Shown piece after piece: positions 956-62,221 of a stretch of 64,000 nucleotides of DNA. Each line of letters begins with the position of its first letter. Positions within the stretch are counted from its first letter, which is position 1. The notes under the pieces were generated by a model. That model saw only the letters and a list, made by a program, of their open reading frames with translations, had not been told where the DNA came from and did no database searches. Both the position numbers and the translations under genes were made by a program. This stretch comes from Octopus vulgaris (taxonomy: Eukaryota). The stretch lies in NCBI GenBank assembly GCA_951406725.2, contig OX597818.1, positions 57,970,001-58,034,000 of the forward strand, in the 5' to 3' direction.

Positions 956-960
<5 letters not shown>

Positions 961-1256
961 GAAAGAATTAACAAAATTCCTTTATTTTATTTTCGACATA
1001 TGTTTCGAAGGGTGCATATTCCTAATTTCGAAGGAATAAGGGGTGCGTTATGCTGCCTTCTCATCAGGAACTGTAGGGAACTTGTGTCAGCATCAAGATG
1101 CACAAAAATTCAAAAGAAACACATAAATTTCCACACGATAGCACGTGATCTCTGCCCTAGGCATGTAGCTTCAACCGTGTTTTTCTGACGTGACGTGAAT
1201 TTGCTACCCAGGTATCGGTTAACCGAATTATCCATAATAAGATAATTCAATCAATT
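956..1256. mobile_element. Penelope-type pLTR remnant, family P1, between (TA)n tracts
   Basis: Shares gcatgtagcttcaaccgtg...ttgctacccaggtatcg with 15666-16012 and 58870-59098; left part is inverted and carries a hammerhead. Confidence 0.7.
992..1070 (-). ncRNA. Type I hammerhead ribozyme motif
   Basis: Minus strand: uuc-CUGAUGA-GAAGG...CCUUC-GAAA-CAUAUG-UC-gaa; full core, palindromic stem III, GUC triplet, short stem I. Confidence 0.75.
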
Positions 1257-1603: not shown

Positions 1604-1917
1604 AAAGTAAGATAGGGGTTATGGGTGTAACCCACTATGGGATATCAATTATACAATATACTGTTGGTAAAGTACCCACATTCTTAATACATAATGTTTT
1701 TAATTGTAATGCAATTAACTTATTTATTGTATTAAACGGGTGAAGGTAAAGAAATATTTTTACCGTAAATTTATAATACAAATAAGAAAATGGAGAAAGA
1801 AATTTGGTTTGTTCATCAACTTACACATAAATTTGTAAAATGAATAAATAATCGAACATTATAATATCTGTAAGTTGATGAACAAACCAAATACCAAATT
1901 TGTTTCTTATTTGAATG

Positions 1918-1948
<31 letters not shown>

Positions 1949-2521
1949 TCAATATAGGGTAGCAAAAAAAATTTTGTAGAATTCTTTTGCCACCAGCGGC
2001 CTAGTGGGAAAAAATTTAAATAGTCATAAACCATTTTTAAGTTCAACATCACAATCAAGGAACGGCCATAATAGGCCATTCACCCACTAGAAATAACAGC
2101 CAAAAGATTCAACCGCAAAATAACATCAATTCCGTATTACAGGGTAAATGTTTTTTAATTTTCTCCTGGTTTACGGAATTGATGTTATTTTGCGGTTGAA
2201 GCTTTTGGCTGTTATTTCTAGTGGGTGAATGGCCTATTATGGCCGTTCCTTGATTGTGATGTTGAACTTAAAAATGTTTTATGACTATTTAAATTTTTTC
2301 CCACTAGGCCGCTGGTGGCAAAAGAATTCTACAAAATTTTTTTGCCACCCTATATTGATTAATTATGAATTTTCTGGTTAATTCCGTAATGGAATCGGCG
2401 GCTTATATTTATTTGCTGCCGATAAATTTGGCGCGAGTGCGACGATTTGAACATTTTAGGTCAGATATTGACGAGGCTTGAACGGGAATGCCTCGTGAAA
2501 AATATCTGTTCCGACTTGGCT

Positions 2522-2628
2522 ATTTCTTACTGATGAATCTAAGGGCCTATGGTAGATTGGCTTGATTTAATTTAATCAGGTTAGTTTACCATTAAACAGT
2601 AGATGAAACGGTGCATCGTATAAGAAAT
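2522..2628 (+). ncRNA. Type I hammerhead ribozyme, copy 1
   Basis: Stem I auuucuua/uaagaaau; CUGAUGA; stem II AUCUA/UAGAU; GAAA; stem III CGG-UGCA-UCG; GUA triplet, predicted cut after 2620. Confidence 0.9.
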
Positions 2629-3011
2629 TACAGGGTAAATGTTTTTTAATTTTCTCCTGGTTTACGGAATTGATGTTATTTTGCGGTTGAAGCTTTTGGC
2701 TGTTATTTCTAGTGGGTGAATGGCCTATTATGGCCGTTCCTTGATTGTGATGTTGAACTTAAAATGGTTTATGACTATTTAAATTTTTTCCCACTAGGCC
2801 GCTGGTGGCAAAAGAATTCTACAAAATTTTTTTGCCACCCTATATTGATTAATTATGAATTTTCTGGTTAATTCCGTAATGGAATCGGCGGCTTATATTT
2901 ATTTGCTGCCGATAAATTTGGCGCGAGTGCGACGATTTGAAAATTTTAGGTCAGATTTTGACGAGGCTTGAACGGGAATGCCTCGTGAAAAATATCTGTT
3001 CCGACTTGGCT

Positions 3012-3118
3012 ATTTCTTACTGATGAATCTAAGGGCCTATGGTAGATTGGCTTGATTTAATTTAATCAGGTTAGTTTACCATTAAACAGTAGATGAAACG
3101 GTGCATCGTATAAGAAAT
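3012..3118 (+). ncRNA. Type I hammerhead ribozyme, copy 2
   Basis: Identical to copy 1, 490 nt downstream; predicted cut after 3110. Confidence 0.9.
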
Positions 3119-3236
3119 TACAGGGTAAATGTTTTTTAATTTTCTCCTGGTTTACGGAATTGATGTTATTTTGCGGTTGAAGCTTTTGGCTGTTATTTCT
3201 AGTGGGTGAATGGCCTATTATGGCCGTTCCTTGATT

Positions 3237-3288
<52 letters not shown>

Positions 3289-3305
3289 TTTATATATATA
3301 TATAT

Positions 3306-3379
3306 TTTTCCTAGTTTCAGCTCAGAGCTGCGGCCATGCTGTTGCACCGCCGTTTATATATATATATATACATGTATAT

Positions 3380-3426
<47 letters not shown>

Positions 3427-3475
3427 GGCGGTACATAAGCATGGCCGCAGCTCTGAGCTGAAACTAGGAAAAGAA
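3306..3475. repeat. Inverted pair of short SINE/LINE-type 3' tails around a (TA)n spacer
   Basis: 3306-3356 is the near reverse complement of 3420-3475; related to the family C tail ggcggtgctccagcatggccgcag. Confidence 0.75.
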
Positions 3476-3721: not shown

Positions 3722-4247
3722 ATAACATAAGGGACTAAAGCCATCTGAATATGGCTAGGGACAGGGCAGAGTGGTGGGGGTGTTACTGTTGCATTTAGCC
3801 CCAGGCGAACATCGACGTCACCAGAAAGGCCGACACCGTCACGGTGTCCTTAACCTGCAAAGGGAGGTAATTCCCCGATGAAGCGGAAACCACACACGGA
3901 CCATGGTTTCAAGGTGTATTGCCTATCGTCGGCGTGTGGTAGGCTTCCGCTTCCTCGACGAATTCTCACTCTGCAGGATATTCATATATAGATTTTCAAG
4001 CAAAATACATTTGCTGATTTCGAAACTCTGTTCGAAAGCAATAATAATTCTCTAAAAGAGATATAGACAGTAACTGCTCGATAACATAAGGGACTAAAGC
4101 CATCTGAATATGGCTAGGGACAGGGCAGGGTGGTGGGGGTGTTACTGTTGCATTTAGCCCCAGGCGAACATCGACGTCACCAGAAAGGCCCGACACCGTC
4201 ACGGTGTCCTTAACCTGCAAAGGGAGGTAATTCCCCGATGACGCGGA
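3722..4247. repeat. Two near-identical ~165-bp direct copies (3722-3885, 4081-4247) of an unclassified interspersed repeat
   Basis: ataacataagggactaaagccatctgaatatggc...ggtaattccccgatga occurs twice. Confidence 0.8.
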
Positions 4248-4770: not shown

Positions 4771-6413
4771 GTATATCTACAAATGCTTCGCGGTACAGAC
4801 AATAGAGGTTGAAAAATGCAAGGCAGCTCACTCACTCTAGACGTAGCATGGATTTACGCTGTGTCAGCATTAAAGAATTTGCTTCAAATGATTGGCTTGT
4901 CTTAAAAAGACTTTGGCATCAACGAAATTGTTTATTTTGAAATAAATACTTCCATGAAAGGAATCGAATCTTTCTAAAGGAGAAAGAAAATTTCATTGTG
5001 AGAGAGAAAGATAGAAAAGGAGAGAGGATGAGAAAGAGAGAGAGATGGCGTACAATTTTTGTGATTCGCAGTTAAATTAATGTAAGTCAGATGCCAAACT
5101 GATTGAACGGGGCATTAAAAGAAATGGTACTCACAACTGGAAGTACTTGAATCCGTTGCATTATAAATCCGGTGATTTTTAAATTGTCCTGCTTTACGAG
5201 CAATAATGAAATGTGAATCTTTGACTTAACGGTCCTTGAAGTAGTAACAAAGATTTCCACGTATCTTTTATAAGGAGGTAAGTTATAATAGGTTATAGCA
5301 CCCACAAATCAACTTGATCTCGTTAGTTAAAACATTACAGTTACATACGACGATGCTGCTACAAGTTTCCTTACGAAATGGGATTAATCCAAGGCTTGGC
5401 GGAATGGTCTAATTGATACAAACATTTGCTGTAGGGGGATACAGCCGCGTACTCAGAACAAAAACGAAAGGCTGTCGTTTAGGCTGGCTGTCAGATACGT
5501 TTTCGATAGGAATGTCAGCGCCTGTACGTAGGGTAATTACCAGAATTTATATAATTATTCATTTGATGAAATGTATTGGATAAATGTCATATACACACAT
5601 TGATTTGATCCAAATTCACACTATGTATAAAGATGCAATGGCCTTTGAAATTATAACGAAAATCATTTTGTTTTTAAATACTCACAGCAAGTAATCGGTT
5701 CATGACGTACACTAACCCGTGAGAGGTGTTTAGCTGGAGCAAGTTGTATCGAATTCTAATTAAAACTTAGGGAATTATAAACAGCAACATTGTCAGTCAC
5801 GTTAATTAATCTCAGAGAGAAAAATCGTAACAATGCAGTCCATTTTACGTTGCATGTACTTACCCTTATTCTACGCCATCTAGTGTAGGAAATATGTTTA
5901 ACACAGGTCGTAGGTGATCTCATTAAAATTTGTTTGAAGCCTGCCGCATGTAACACTTGAAATTTCCAATTAATATGCTTTGTTCAATACACCTGCATAA
6001 ATATAATCAAGGATGATCATATTGTTTGGATTAATATATTAAGTTAATCACTGGTTACATCGTCGGCGGCGGCGCACGTACTTACGCATGATATAACTAT
6101 TATATGAAAAACTGAATTTTATAGTTGTTTGTTAATACTTTTCACCTTGGCATATGTAACTGTAGTCAAATGCTTCAATTACATATTTGGTTAATTATCT
6201 AACGTTAATTAATTGATTAAACGGAAAGAAACGAATAATTAAGGCATTTATTATTCACATAAAAAATTACTTTACATTATATGTTGTACATGGTAAACGC
6301 AACTGATTTTCTATAAGAACCTGCCAAATTATTCTCCACAATAACATACAATATGTTATTATTAAGAGCATATATTTCAAATTACTCACGAAATACATTA
6401 ATTTGTTCAATAC

Positions 6414-6947: not shown

Positions 6948-7452
6948 ATCCGCCGAGGTCGACTTTGCCTTTCATCGTTTCGGGGGTCGATTAAATAAGT
7001 ACTAGTTACGCACTAGGGTCGATATAATCGACTTAATCCGTTTGTCTGTCATTGTTTGTCCTCTCTGTGTTTGGCCCCTTGTGGGTGATAAAGAAATAGG
7101 TATTTCTTCTGCCGCTACGTTCTGAGTTCAAACTTCGCCGAGGTCGACTTTGCCTTTCATCCTTTCGGGGTCGATTAAATAAGTACCAGTTACACACTGG
7201 GGTCGATATAATCGACTTAATCCGTTTGTCTGTCCTAGTTTGTCCCTTCTGTGTTCAGCCCCTTGTGAGTAGTAAAGAGTTAGGTGTTTCGCTCGTCGCT
7301 GCGTTCTGAGTTCAAATTCCGCCAAGGTCGACTTTGCCTTTCATCATTTCGTGGAGGACAAATTAAATACCAGTGAAACACTGGGGGTCGATGTAATCCA
7401 CTTGCACCCTCCCCACCAAATGTGAGGTCGTGTGCCTCCAGTGGAAAGGATT
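6948..7452 (+). mobile_element. SINE family A tandem trimer, 5'-truncated
   Basis: Three consecutive gtcgactttgcctttcatc units; last unit has an alternative tail. Confidence 0.85.
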
Positions 7453-21828: not shown

Positions 21829-21878
<50 letters not shown>

Positions 21879-22514
21879 ATATTTCGGAATGGTCATATTG
21901 CCAGTTTAGCCAATAAAAACACACGCACTATATATTTGGTGTTATTTTGCTTAAGTGATATTTATTTTTTACATTAATCTTAATCTTATTTCGGCCAAAG
22001 TTCTTTCGTCACACTCCTGTGACCGCATCAGTGGTCCTTTGTTTTCTTCTCACTTACTTGTGTCTCTCCTTACTAACCGTCAGCCATTTTGTATTTCTAT
22101 TGTATGTCTTCATTTGCGCATGCTTATATCTCTATGTGCGTCTATGTTTATTTAGTGTGTGTGTGGGGGGGATGCCTGTAATATTTGTATCTTCTGGTTA
22201 TATACATTCTTGTAATTTGTATTTTGTTTTTGTTGTTGTTGCTTTTGTTCTAATTTTGTTCATGTGTTTACATCCACCCATTATTATCATTACATATGCT
22301 TGTATGTATGTATAACAACAATATTAGTAATAATAATAATAAATCTAATCGAAAAAAAAAAAAAAGAATATACATATACATATATATATATACATACATA
22401 TACATATACATATACATATATATGCATATATACACACATATATACACATATAGATATTCATTTCTATTTCTTTAATTACCTGTGTATTTATTATGTTTGC
22501 AGGATCCACTATTG

Positions 22515-22910
22515 TCATATGTTGTGGTGTGCGCTATTGCTCCATTCTAGTTTTCTATTCAGGCTAGGTTTATTTTCTATTATATGTGTAGCTTCTGTAA
22601 TTTGTCTAATTGTTGCATCTGTTCTATGTGTGGACAATATCTTAATCTCTATGTTATTGATTGATCCCCCGTGTTCTTGTTCGGCGTGTTGGTACAGAAT
22701 CGATGAGCTTTTACCTTCTTTGAGTTGTCTCCAATGTTCATTCACCCGCTCACCAATGCTTCTTGCAGTTTCCCCTACGTATGTTACTGTCTTGTTACTG
22801 CATCGTCCCTCTATACATCTTATACTATAGACCACATTTCTGGCTTTACAGTTCGTTTGTGGGCTAAATCTACATACAGTGCAATAGTTATCCGTACAGA
22901 GAGTTCTACT
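22515..22910 (-). pseudogene. C-terminal GIY-YIG endonuclease domain of a PLE ORF (truncated)
   Basis: CTVC...NCKARNVVYSIRC...TYVGETARSIGERVNEH...LYQHAEQEH...EATHIIENKPSLN; frame open to the stop codon. Confidence 0.9.
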
Positions 22911-23026
22911 AAATAAACATAGACGCACATAGAGATATAAGCATGCGCAAATGAAGACATACAATAGAAATACAAAATGGCTGACGGTTAGTAAGGAGAG
23001 ACACAAGTAAGTGAGAAGAAAACAAA

Positions 23027-23071
23027 GGACCACTGATGCGGTCACAGGAGTGTGACGAAAGAACTTTGTCC
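23027..23071 (+). ncRNA. Hammerhead-like motif with variant core (also at 21993-22037 minus and 14331-14375 plus)
   Basis: ggacca-CUGAUGCG-GUCACA-ggag-UGUGAC-GAAA-gaacuu-uguc. Confidence 0.55.
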
Positions 23072-23246
23072 GAAATAAGATTAAGATTAATGTAAAAAAT
23101 AAATATCACTGAAGCAAAATAACACCAAATATATAGTGCGTGTGTTTTTATTGGCTAAACTGGCAATATGACCATTCCGAAATATAACAATATCTGTTTC
23201 AACACACGACTTCACATAAAAAATCTTGCACAACAAATATTTAAAC

Positions 23247-23312
<66 letters not shown>

Positions 23313-52140: not shown

Positions 52141-52558
52141 AGGCGGCGAGCTGGCAGAAACGTTAGCGCGCCGGGCGAAATGCTTAGCGGTATGTCGTCT
52201 GCCGTTACGTTCTGAGTTCAAATTCCGCCGAGGTCAACTTTGCCTTTCATCCTTTCGGGGTCGATTAAATAAATACCAGTTACGCACTGGGGTCGATATA
52301 ATGGACTTAATCCGTTTGTCTGTCCTTGTTTGTCCTCTCTGTGTTTAGCCTCTTGTGGGTAGTAAAGAAATAGGCATTTCGTCTGCCATTACGTTGTGAG
52401 TTCAAATTCCGCCGAGGTCGATTTGCCTTTCATCCTTTCGGGATCGATAAATTAAGTACCATTTGCGCACTAGGGTCGATGTAATCGAGTTTATCCTTTT
52501 GTCTATCCTTGCTTGTCCCCTCTATGTTTAGCCCCTTGTGGGCAGTAAAGAAACAGGT
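52141..52558 (+). mobile_element. SINE family A dimer
   Basis: Full monomer followed by a headless unit restarting at ggcatttcgtctg. Confidence 0.88.
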
Positions 52559-53649: not shown

Positions 53650-54251
53650 AAGGCGGTGAGCTGGCAGAATCGTTAGCATGCCAGGCAAAATGCTTTGTGG
53701 TATTTGGTCTGCCGCTACGTTCTGAGTTCGAATTCCGCCGAGGTCGACTTTGCCTTTCATCCTTTCGGGGTCGATAAATTAACTACCAGTTACGCACTGG
53801 GGTCGATATAATCGATTTAATCCCTTTGTCCGTCCTTCTTTGTCCTCTCTGTATTTGGCCCCTTGTGGGCAATATACAAATAGGTATTTCGTCTGCCGTT
53901 ACGTTCTGAGTTCAAATTCCGCCGAGGTCGACGTTGCCTTTCATCCTTTCGGGGTCGGTTAAACAAGTACCAGTTACGCACTGGGATCGATATAATCGAT
54001 TTAATCCCTTTGTCCGTCCTTCTTTGTCCTCTCTGTGTTTAGCCCCTTGTGGGCAATAAAGAAATAGGTATTTCGTCTGTCTTCACGTTCCGAGTTCAAA
54101 TTTCGCCGAAGTCGATTTTGCTTTTCATCCTTTCGGGGTCGATAAATTAAGTACCAGTTACGCACTGTTGTCGATGTAATCGACTTAGTCCGTTTGTCTG
54201 TCCTTGTTTTTCCTCTCTGTGTTTAGCTCCTTGTGGGTAGTAAAGAAATAG
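53650..54251 (+). mobile_element. SINE family A trimer within a single TSD
   Basis: TSD tgtgttgcaatc at 53637-53648 and 54254-54265. Confidence 0.9.
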
Positions 54252-62102: not shown

Positions 62103-62221
62103 TGTTTACAGCACCTAGGTTTCCCAAGCGGGCACCTATCCAAGTGCCGAGTAGGCTGGACGCTGCTTAATTTCGTTGATCGGACGAGAACCGGTGCTTT
62201 CAAAGTGACATACGGTGCTCG
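62103..62221 (-). pseudogene. Diverged 5S rRNA copy
   Basis: Minus strand ttgaaagcaccggttctcgtccgatcaacgaaattaagcagcgtc...cacttggataggtgcccgcttgggaa...ggtgctgta follows the metazoan 5S sequence with many substitutions. Confidence 0.8.

Follow-up and report, generated by a model that had tools for sequence, protein, structure and literature searches.

The stretch of Octopus vulgaris DNA analysed here (the window, 64,000 nucleotides) contains near its left end a non-coding repeat with hammerhead motifs, embedded in a (TA)n microsatellite. The question raised by this locus is whether the repeat is a retrozyme in its own right, the terminal repeat of an autonomous element, or a satellite in which the motifs are incidental, and by which machinery it was inserted. 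The reading that we consider probable, and against which the alternatives are weighed below, is that of an ORF-free, hammerhead-bearing retrozyme, likely copied into (TA)n by a resident PLE enzyme priming both strands at two fixed sites.

Organization of the 490-nt element

The 490-nt unit is present in 2.26 copies at 2136-3241 (TRF: period 490, 2.3 copies, 99% matches), which bears out the claim of a preliminary description of this DNA that a unit of about 490 bp is repeated in tandem at near identity inside (TA)n. The tandem extent given there, 1944..3240, has to be corrected, because 1944-2136 lies outside the tandem and repeats unit 43-233 in inverted orientation. The inverted and the short-start arm meet head-to-head with a 1-nt overlap at 2136, and the short-start arm (2136-3241) spans two predicted cut junctions. 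The GC content of the unit, 0.36, is below the 45% that delimits retrozymes. The features are as follows.

1918..1945, no strand: left (TA)n target microsatellite (TRF)
1944..2136, minus strand: inverted 'long-start' arm covering unit 43-233; the long start site is at its outer (3') end (sequence comparison)
2136..3241, plus strand: 'short-start' arm, unit 7-490, 1-490 and 1-131, 2.26 units (TRF and arm parse)
2522..2628, plus strand: type I hammerhead 1, predicted cut after 2620 (descriptor scan and fold)
2621..3110, plus strand: predicted non-coding monomer RNA of 490 nt, in which no stop-free frame exceeds 60 aa
2752..2856, plus strand: 105-nt 'tail' (unit 132-236) between the fixed outer ends, the putative short and long RT start sites
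3012..3118, plus strand: type I hammerhead 2, predicted cut after 3110 (descriptor scan)
3240..3305, no strand: right (TA)n target microsatellite (TRF)
21875..23247, minus strand: two-armed, 5'-truncated copy of PLE1, with a GIY-YIG piece at 22515-22904; outside the 490-nt element

Other repeats are also present in the window. A 75-nt inverted repeat at 3306-3472, arranged around (TA)n beside the element, is possibly a short two-armed insertion of another repeat. A 184-nt SINE-like repeat forms tandem arrays of 2-3 copies at 6949-7403, 52195-52557 and 53699-54251, and 62103-62220 (minus strand) is a degenerate match to 5S rRNA (42.7 bits), either a pseudogene or the head of a 5S-derived SINE.

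The hammerhead motifs

A type I hammerhead had been claimed for every full unit, and the descriptor scan agrees, with cuts predicted after 2620 and 3110: both motifs have CUGAUGA (starting at 2530 and 3020), GAAA (starting at 2605 and 3095) and GUA. In hammerhead 1 the 8-bp stem I (2522-2529/2621-2628) encloses CUGAUGA at 2530-2536, an extended stem II at 2537-2604, GAAA at 2605-2608 and a palindromic stem III at 2608-2619. Motifs as strong as these two were found in 0 of 30 shuffles of the window, and comparison of the predicted fold with shuffled controls gives z = −5.8 for the hammerhead region and z = −7.7 for the monomer. Tandem units with one type I hammerhead each, at least two of them consecutive, as is expected of a retrozyme, are therefore present.

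The motif is nevertheless atypical. The stem II region measures 68 nt, being extended by a 19-bp hairpin; the pair 10.1-11.1 is A-U in the window copy; and stem III is a 12-nt self-complementary palindrome, able to pair between two copies. In the dimer-acting hammerheads of PLEs and amphibian retrozymes, helix III is short and palindromic and allows cleavage as a dimer; the predicted self-duplex of stem III in the octopus unit has 12 bp and −17.5 kcal/mol, a 3-bp monomeric stem III being also conceivable. An Infernal-type search with hammerhead models, which the preliminary description had proposed as a check, was negative: no Rfam hammerhead model matched at its gathering score in the whole window, or with E≤10 in 1900-3300. 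Rfam matches to miRNA models at 1991-2317 are below their own gathering scores, reflect the inverted arms, and were rejected.

Among the core positions of 333 hammerhead copies, N7 may be any of the four bases (U 244, G 34, A 28, C 27), H17 is solely A or C (C 173, A 160), and the remaining positions are 98-100% fixed, a pattern of variation such as would be expected of a ribozyme under selection. Compensatory changes on both sides are seen in 4 of the 8 stem I pairs and in 1 of the 5 basal stem II pairs; the covariation in stem I comes from a diverged subfamily, mainly from two copies, and relatedness inflates the shuffle test. The pair 10.1-11.1 is never G-C among the copies (10.1 is A, G or U; 11.1 is U or C); G-C is the conserved pair of canonical hammerheads (PMC4209133; this and the other reports cited are referred to for the parts of their text that were available).

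The loci L208, L213, L227 and L162 represent a diverged 490-nt subfamily, in which the short end differs in sequence and stem I carries compensatory changes.

Size and age of the family

The unit has 1417 candidate places genome-wide, the best 40 loci being mostly 95-99% identical, and its copies are dispersed over many chromosomes. Exact matches numbered 2960 for a 22-nt motif of the unit and 418 for the junction between the short end and TA, with 0 in the reversed-pattern control of each; as the first 100 matches of the 22-nt motif correspond to 46 loci, the family extrapolates to approximately 1,400 loci. We have studied four sets of these: set 1 consists of the 40 best-scoring loci, window copy included, and is biased to long arms; set 2, of 46 motif-bearing loci in position order on contig C1; set 3, of another 21 loci on C1 that have the short-end junction, one of which duplicates a locus of set 1; and set 4, a replication obtained afterwards, of 60 loci with the short-end junction on C2-C4, parsed by script. 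Together these amount to 166 distinct loci (126 in position order), about an eighth of the family. Substitutions per site are 0.005 among the units of one arm versus 0.021 between loci.

Anatomy of the insertions

The outer ends of the arms fall at unit 124-136 (short, ~131) or at about 226-245 (long, ~236), and abut TA with 2-5 nt shared. A short end is paired with a long end 129 times in the four sets, with 1 exception: at 29 of 40 loci in set 1, at 34 of 46 in set 2, in 13 insertions at 12 of 21 loci in set 3, and at 53 of 60 in set 4, where 47 pairs were mapped by BLAST and 6, with tiny long arms, were read by eye. The exception is a short+short pair (L300); long+long was never found, although the sets anchored on the short end could not reveal it. 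There are 28 single-armed loci (9, 10, 3 and 6 across the four sets), and the others comprise 2 chimeric loci, the atypical L069 with its outer end at unit 103, 2 loci with one end lost, and 5 running off the fetched DNA. Haplotypes agree between the arms at 20 of 26 loci, as against 69 of 646 cross-locus pairs. The two arms are joined head-to-head, mostly with 0-4 nt of overlap, and extend up to 11 units containing the unit only. Fixed 3' ends with a tail, 5' truncation, an inverted copy and a microsatellite target, which together make up the anatomy of PLE-type insertions, are all found here and support the earlier proposal of copying by a PLE reverse transcriptase.

Some arrays have a more complex composition. 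In one arm of L059 (2762-6195, minus strand) G12U is present in the hammerheads of 5 of 8 units, the intact ones recurring every third unit; L061 has a repeated 4-unit pattern, and mixed units occur also in L062. The variant patterns of L059 and L061 imply that some long arrays were rearranged later or were copied from multimers. A trimer circle, as the period of three in L059 might suggest, is not claimed, because other variants break the period.

The insertions could alternatively be a minisatellite, spread or expanded by DNA recombination, in which the hammerhead motif is incidental. The periodic variants in L059 and L061 do suggest some later unequal exchange, but the fixed outer ends in (TA)n, the variable 5' ends, the head-to-head arms, the dispersal over many chromosomes and the conserved ribozyme core make this scarcely credible: such an origin of the insertions is contradicted, and recombination can only add units later.

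Relationship to PLE open reading frames

A genome-wide search with the unit, suggested in the preliminary description as a way to find out whether the copies stand alone, gave the 1417 candidate places mentioned above, and the 166 loci examined are stand-alone arrays. By tblastn with 5 resident PLE proteins, the unit is joined to a PLE ORF at 0 of the 166 loci; PLE pieces do occur in some flanks, apart from the unit, and none continues an arm. By blastn, the unit has no similarity to the sampled PLE families (PLE1, PLE2 at 3 loci, and 20 GIY-YIG loci), neither to a partner PLE 3' end nor to a pLTR, the sole match in those loci being a separate 53-nt insertion of the 490-nt family in L140. We have also compared the 5' flanks of 29 arms, from single-armed or chimeric loci, with five PLE and three small families. 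Only 2 of the 29 arms are directly joined to another element: in L041 a piece of the unit is head-to-head with the short end of PLE1, and in L232 the unit adjoins a non-coding 360-nt family, not a PLE, at the short end of the latter. Autonomous PLEs do co-exist with the unit: three PLE families have open frames of 1312, 1025 and 781 aa, and at least four TA-flanked PLE families are present in the genome, none of which resembles it.

The occurrence of the unit only as the terminal repeat of an autonomous PLE had been named beforehand as the finding that would turn the retrozyme into a pLTR array. With no ORF-joined copy at 166 loci, the element is classed as a non-LTR retrozyme and not as a pLTR array. 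It is very improbable indeed that the unit is the pseudo-LTR (pLTR) of an autonomous PLE outside those found, with arrays produced by truncation or local expansion of pLTRs. In its favour are the wholly PLE-like anatomy and the resemblance of Xenopus retrozymes to pLTRs (10.64898/2026.07.22.740005), and the 5 PLE proteins and ~20 GIY-YIG loci compared here have to be set against 31 recently active PLE families in O. vulgaris (PMC13282606); yet at none of the 166 loci (126 position-ordered) does an arm run 5' into an ORF, the PLE matches lie apart in the flanks, and arms of up to 11 units hold the unit alone. As judged from its sequence, the 490-nt repeat is a real, young, dispersed non-LTR retrozyme with a predicted ribozyme.

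Arm stops near the predicted cut

The positions at which the arms end were analysed by counting stops per base at risk, walking each arm back from its outer end. The C1 sets provided 110 hand-curated arms, excluding those running off the DNA or without an outer end, the complex loci L223 and L207, and the duplicate L191. Of these arms 26 stop at unit 1-30, versus 7.5 expected (p = 2e-8); in the replication by script, from which six tiny arms were unmapped, 24 of 108 do so, versus 7.4 expected (p = 3e-7). The excess belongs to the first pass, with 42 stops in 162 (21/82 and 21/80), as opposed to 8 in 103 (5/62 and 3/41) for later passes (p = 2e-4). Where both arms reach this zone, their stops are coupled: the counts for both, short only, long only and neither are 7, 2, 2 and 18 in C1 (p = 7e-4), and 8, 1, 1 and 21 in the replication (p = 1e-5). 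The cut junction is crossed by 61 of 110 and 61 of 108 arms, and at least twice by 27 and 24, respectively. Arms of one pair end at unit positions no more than 3 nt apart 9 times in 46 and 14 times in 47, where permutation gives means of 1.2 and 1.5. Among the 18 replication pairs whose ends lie within 10 nt, 13 differ in arm length by 95-111 nt, corresponding to the same physical point on one RNA, and four of the other five sit at palindromes.

The 40 best-scoring loci, a set selected for long arms, show no excess at 1-30 (5 of 71, p = 0.44). Stops are scattered over unit 1-30 and seldom fall at 1 (the lowest is 5 in C1, and two are at 1 in the replication); since this region also holds a hairpin and U tracts, trimming must be assumed. 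A cluster of stops at 466-490 (9 versus 5.5 expected, p = 0.10) was not replicated (2 versus 6.6 for 461-490) and was discarded.

The simplest reading of these statistics is that both arms copy one molecule, with about a quarter of the templates starting at the hammerhead cut and the others spanning the junction, many of them more than once; in vivo cleavage would then be supported indirectly, by where the cDNA arms stop. Two other explanations bear on this point. According to the first, a single cDNA folds back or primes itself to give the inverted arm, and the stops at 1-30 are pauses at structure rather than the result of cleavage. Self-priming has been proposed for the rotifer Penelope (PMC3846280), and the 9 of 46 and 14 of 47 pairs with arms ending within 3 nt of the same coordinate, as well as joints that in some cases lie in palindromes (at unit 184, with 35-39 nt of overlap), would suit it. 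This explanation is challenged by the lengths of the arms, since the short-start arm exceeds its partner in 19 of 46 pairs and in the window: as it is often longer, and lacks the long-start tail, neither arm can generally be derived from the other. A structure pause should also recur on every pass, while the excess is seen on the first pass only, and we regard fold-back as very unlikely.

The second explanation retains the element and PLE twin priming but dispenses with the circle: the arms that span the junction would have as templates uncleaved linear multimers, transcribed from arrays already present, and the hammerhead would cut no more than a minority of the RNAs. We deem this unlikely, though several observations agree with it, namely that unprocessed RNA dominated as substrate of the anole PLE (PMC11167929), that the 10.1-11.1 pair looks weak, that units are mixed inside L059, L061 and L062, and that arrays of up to 11 units are available as sources. 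However, the upstream hammerheads of a multimer should be cut too, and later passes are without excess (8/103). The values of 0.005 and 0.021 substitutions per site fit one monomer copied repeatedly, but a homogeneous source array fits as well.

Possible traces of transcription

Of 23 listed sequencing runs, which come from 7 studies and carry 4 organism labels, 20 contain the stretch, and none of these is recorded as RNA. Contigs assembled from runs that may be of RNA (their RNA status is not on record) cover the unit. Relative to the PLE1 pLTR, its summed depth is lower in these runs than in a probable DNA run, depth being a poor measure of expression. In two of the possible RNA runs A>G changes are found at three hammerhead positions, and are absent from the probable DNA run, which is of another sample; one A>G-rich contig end runs across the predicted cut. 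These changes hint weakly at plus-strand transcription and editing. Words resembling Pol III A and B boxes on the minus strand of the unit occupy sites that are variable among subfamilies, and were dismissed.

PLE1 and neighbouring repeat families

Among the resident PLEs, PLE1 (9514 candidates, 1312-aa open frames, truncated copy at 21875-23247 of the window) is very young, as 150 of 150 scored endonuclease pieces are identical. It pairs short and long ends in 20 of 21 loci, selected for length or for having two arms (L089 yielded no ends); its tail is ~56 nt, and its short end is 127 nt from the putative cut, versus 131 in the 490-nt unit. The PLE1 pLTR has a variant minimal hammerhead. A 1309-aa protein is encoded at L082:1475-5413 (minus strand), with an asparagine-rich insert of ~250 aa that recalls the N-rich inserts of rotifer Penelope (PMC3846280); Pfam found no family on this protein taken whole, and the endonuclease piece matches GIY-YIG slightly below the Pfam cut-off. 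PLE1 also carries the CX2-5CxxC linker ascribed to Neptune and Nematis (PMC8557442). It is one of several candidate mobilisers of the unit.

A second young tandem family, with a 360-nt unit and 899 candidates that are 98-99% identical, has a copy at 3722-4245 of the window, two-armed in (TA)n with its two ends ~44 nt apart on the minus strand. At 6 of 8 distinct loci this family has two different ends 40-50 nt apart, and at the other two, one end only. It has no canonical hammerhead core and no Rfam match, and may carry another or novel type of ribozyme, or none. An older family of ~175 nt (2178 candidates, 78-96% identical, partly tandem) is present at 958-1255, minus strand, with a short, canonical-looking type I hammerhead at 992-1070 whose stem III is palindromic. 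At 1270-1556 there is a TA-flanked dispersed element, pieces of which are found in L145 and L296, with a hammerhead-like word on the minus strand (by eye). Another PLE family has, in L133 at 5810-5850, a minimal hammerhead-like motif with C for U4 (by eye), ~140 nt before the TA-flanked end of that family.

A model of retrozyme insertion

In the mechanism that we propose, plus-strand multimers would be transcribed and, as we expect with good confidence, cut by the hammerhead at unit 490|1 to give linear monomers; we lean towards part of these being ligated into circles. A dimer of a PLE enzyme with RT and GIY-YIG activities would then nick both strands of (TA)n, and the involvement of one dimer and a single RNA is quite likely. 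One subunit would start at unit ~236 and the other at ~131, aided by 2-5 nt of AU/TA complementarity, and the two would proceed towards the 5' end of the RNA. They would run off a cut monomer near position 1, and on a junction-spanning template copying would continue for up to 11 units. The two cDNAs would finally be joined head-to-head, an anatomy that is observed, and filled in by a chemistry that is presumed.

A more far-reaching reading, which we put forward tentatively and with more doubt than conviction, is that PLEs are asymmetric dimers in which each subunit owns one fixed start site on one RNA, and that the insertions are a germline record of cut linear and circular forms of the retrozyme. 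The PLE 'tail' and the inverted pLTR would in that case be an obligatory product of twin priming, the joint arm stops would represent the ribozyme-cut linear form, and the rolling-circle arms the circular form.

Comparison with known systems

In L1 twin priming both target strands prime on one RNA, with an inversion as the result; the position of the second site varies there, and the pieces are without overlap. The octopus element differs in having two fixed sites and two arms copied from the same sequence.

A close anatomical parallel is provided by EN+ PLEs, which share the inverted, 5'-truncated copy joined head-to-head, the tail at one end only, the (TA)n target and the hammerhead upstream of the 3' end (PMC8557442, PMC3846280). 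Unlike them, the octopus unit has no RT/GIY-YIG ORF, its tail is 105 nt rather than 30-40 bp, and, whereas the tail is described in these reports as optional or at either end, here a tailed arm is almost always paired with a tail-less one. In vitro, the Poseidon PLE of anole starts reverse transcription at two internal sites, between which the tail lies, is predicted to be a dimer, and nicks and extends both strands of an AT-rich target (PMC11167929); the AT-rich target and, as we infer, the two internal starts on either side of a tail are shared by the octopus unit. For the anole PLE cleavage was dispensable for insertion, no RNA ends were reported at the cut, and no difference in start site between the strands was seen in vitro (PMC11167929), while the copies in the octopus genome suggest that each strand has its own site and that some templates end near the cut. 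The non-autonomous PLEs of Chlamys, such as MRC1, are likewise non-coding, multicopy head-to-tail insertions moved by PLEs, as we infer for octopus; they differ in that their 3' ends resemble those of the autonomous partner, and canonical hammerheads are described as lacking from most Chlamys elements (PMC8557442).

With the metazoan non-LTR retrozymes (PMC7229834; 10.64898/2026.07.22.740005) the octopus element shares the tandem arrangement of ORF-free, low-GC units, each with one type I hammerhead, the occurrence as dimers to multimers, and the co-occurrence with PLEs. Mobilisation of animal retrozymes by PLEs has already been proposed, and a mollusc example, in mussel, has demonstrated circles (same sources). 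The later report, a preprint of 2026, treats animal retrozymes as non-autonomous PLE derivatives, with molluscs outside its sample; of nine predicted Xenopus retrozymes 8 were inactive in vitro and 1 active (10.64898/2026.07.22.740005). The octopus unit of 490 nt is longer than the 170-400 nt of one report (PMC7229834) and inside the 51-972 bp of the other (10.64898/2026.07.22.740005), and is unlike the described retrozymes in its cephalopod host, its long stem II and the A-U pair at 10.1-11.1. It has no link in sequence to a pLTR among the sampled PLEs, versus 24 of 57 Xenopus families linked (10.64898/2026.07.22.740005), and no retrozyme is described as having two arms with fixed start sites in the available parts of the two reports (PMC7229834; 10.64898/2026.07.22.740005).

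In a literature search whose scope was outside most subscription journals and Repbase, we found neither a cephalopod retrozyme nor an obligate pairing of short and long ends, in keeping with the earlier remark that no description of this family in cephalopods was known, but not establishing priority. By term count, the main text of PMC13282606 contains neither 'ribozyme' nor 'retrozyme'; the family may already be listed in the O. vulgaris repeat library of that paper, in the supplement of PMC7229834, or in a paper on dimeric PLE hammerheads. As far as literature searches reach, cephalopods are added to the hosts of retrozymes. The origin of inverted, tailed PLE insertions, the purpose of their hammerheads and the mobilisation of retrozymes are open questions in the field (10.64898/2026.07.22.740005, PMC8557442, PMC7229834, PMC11167929). 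With approximately 1,400 young insertions of a short, non-coding template, the octopus family provides countable answers, one short and one long start each, and yields also a class of templates ending at the predicted ribozyme cut, and the intact, near-identical PLE frames of this genome put an in vitro test within practical reach. The replicated statistics of end pairing and of stops at the cut site bear on the open mechanism of PLEs.
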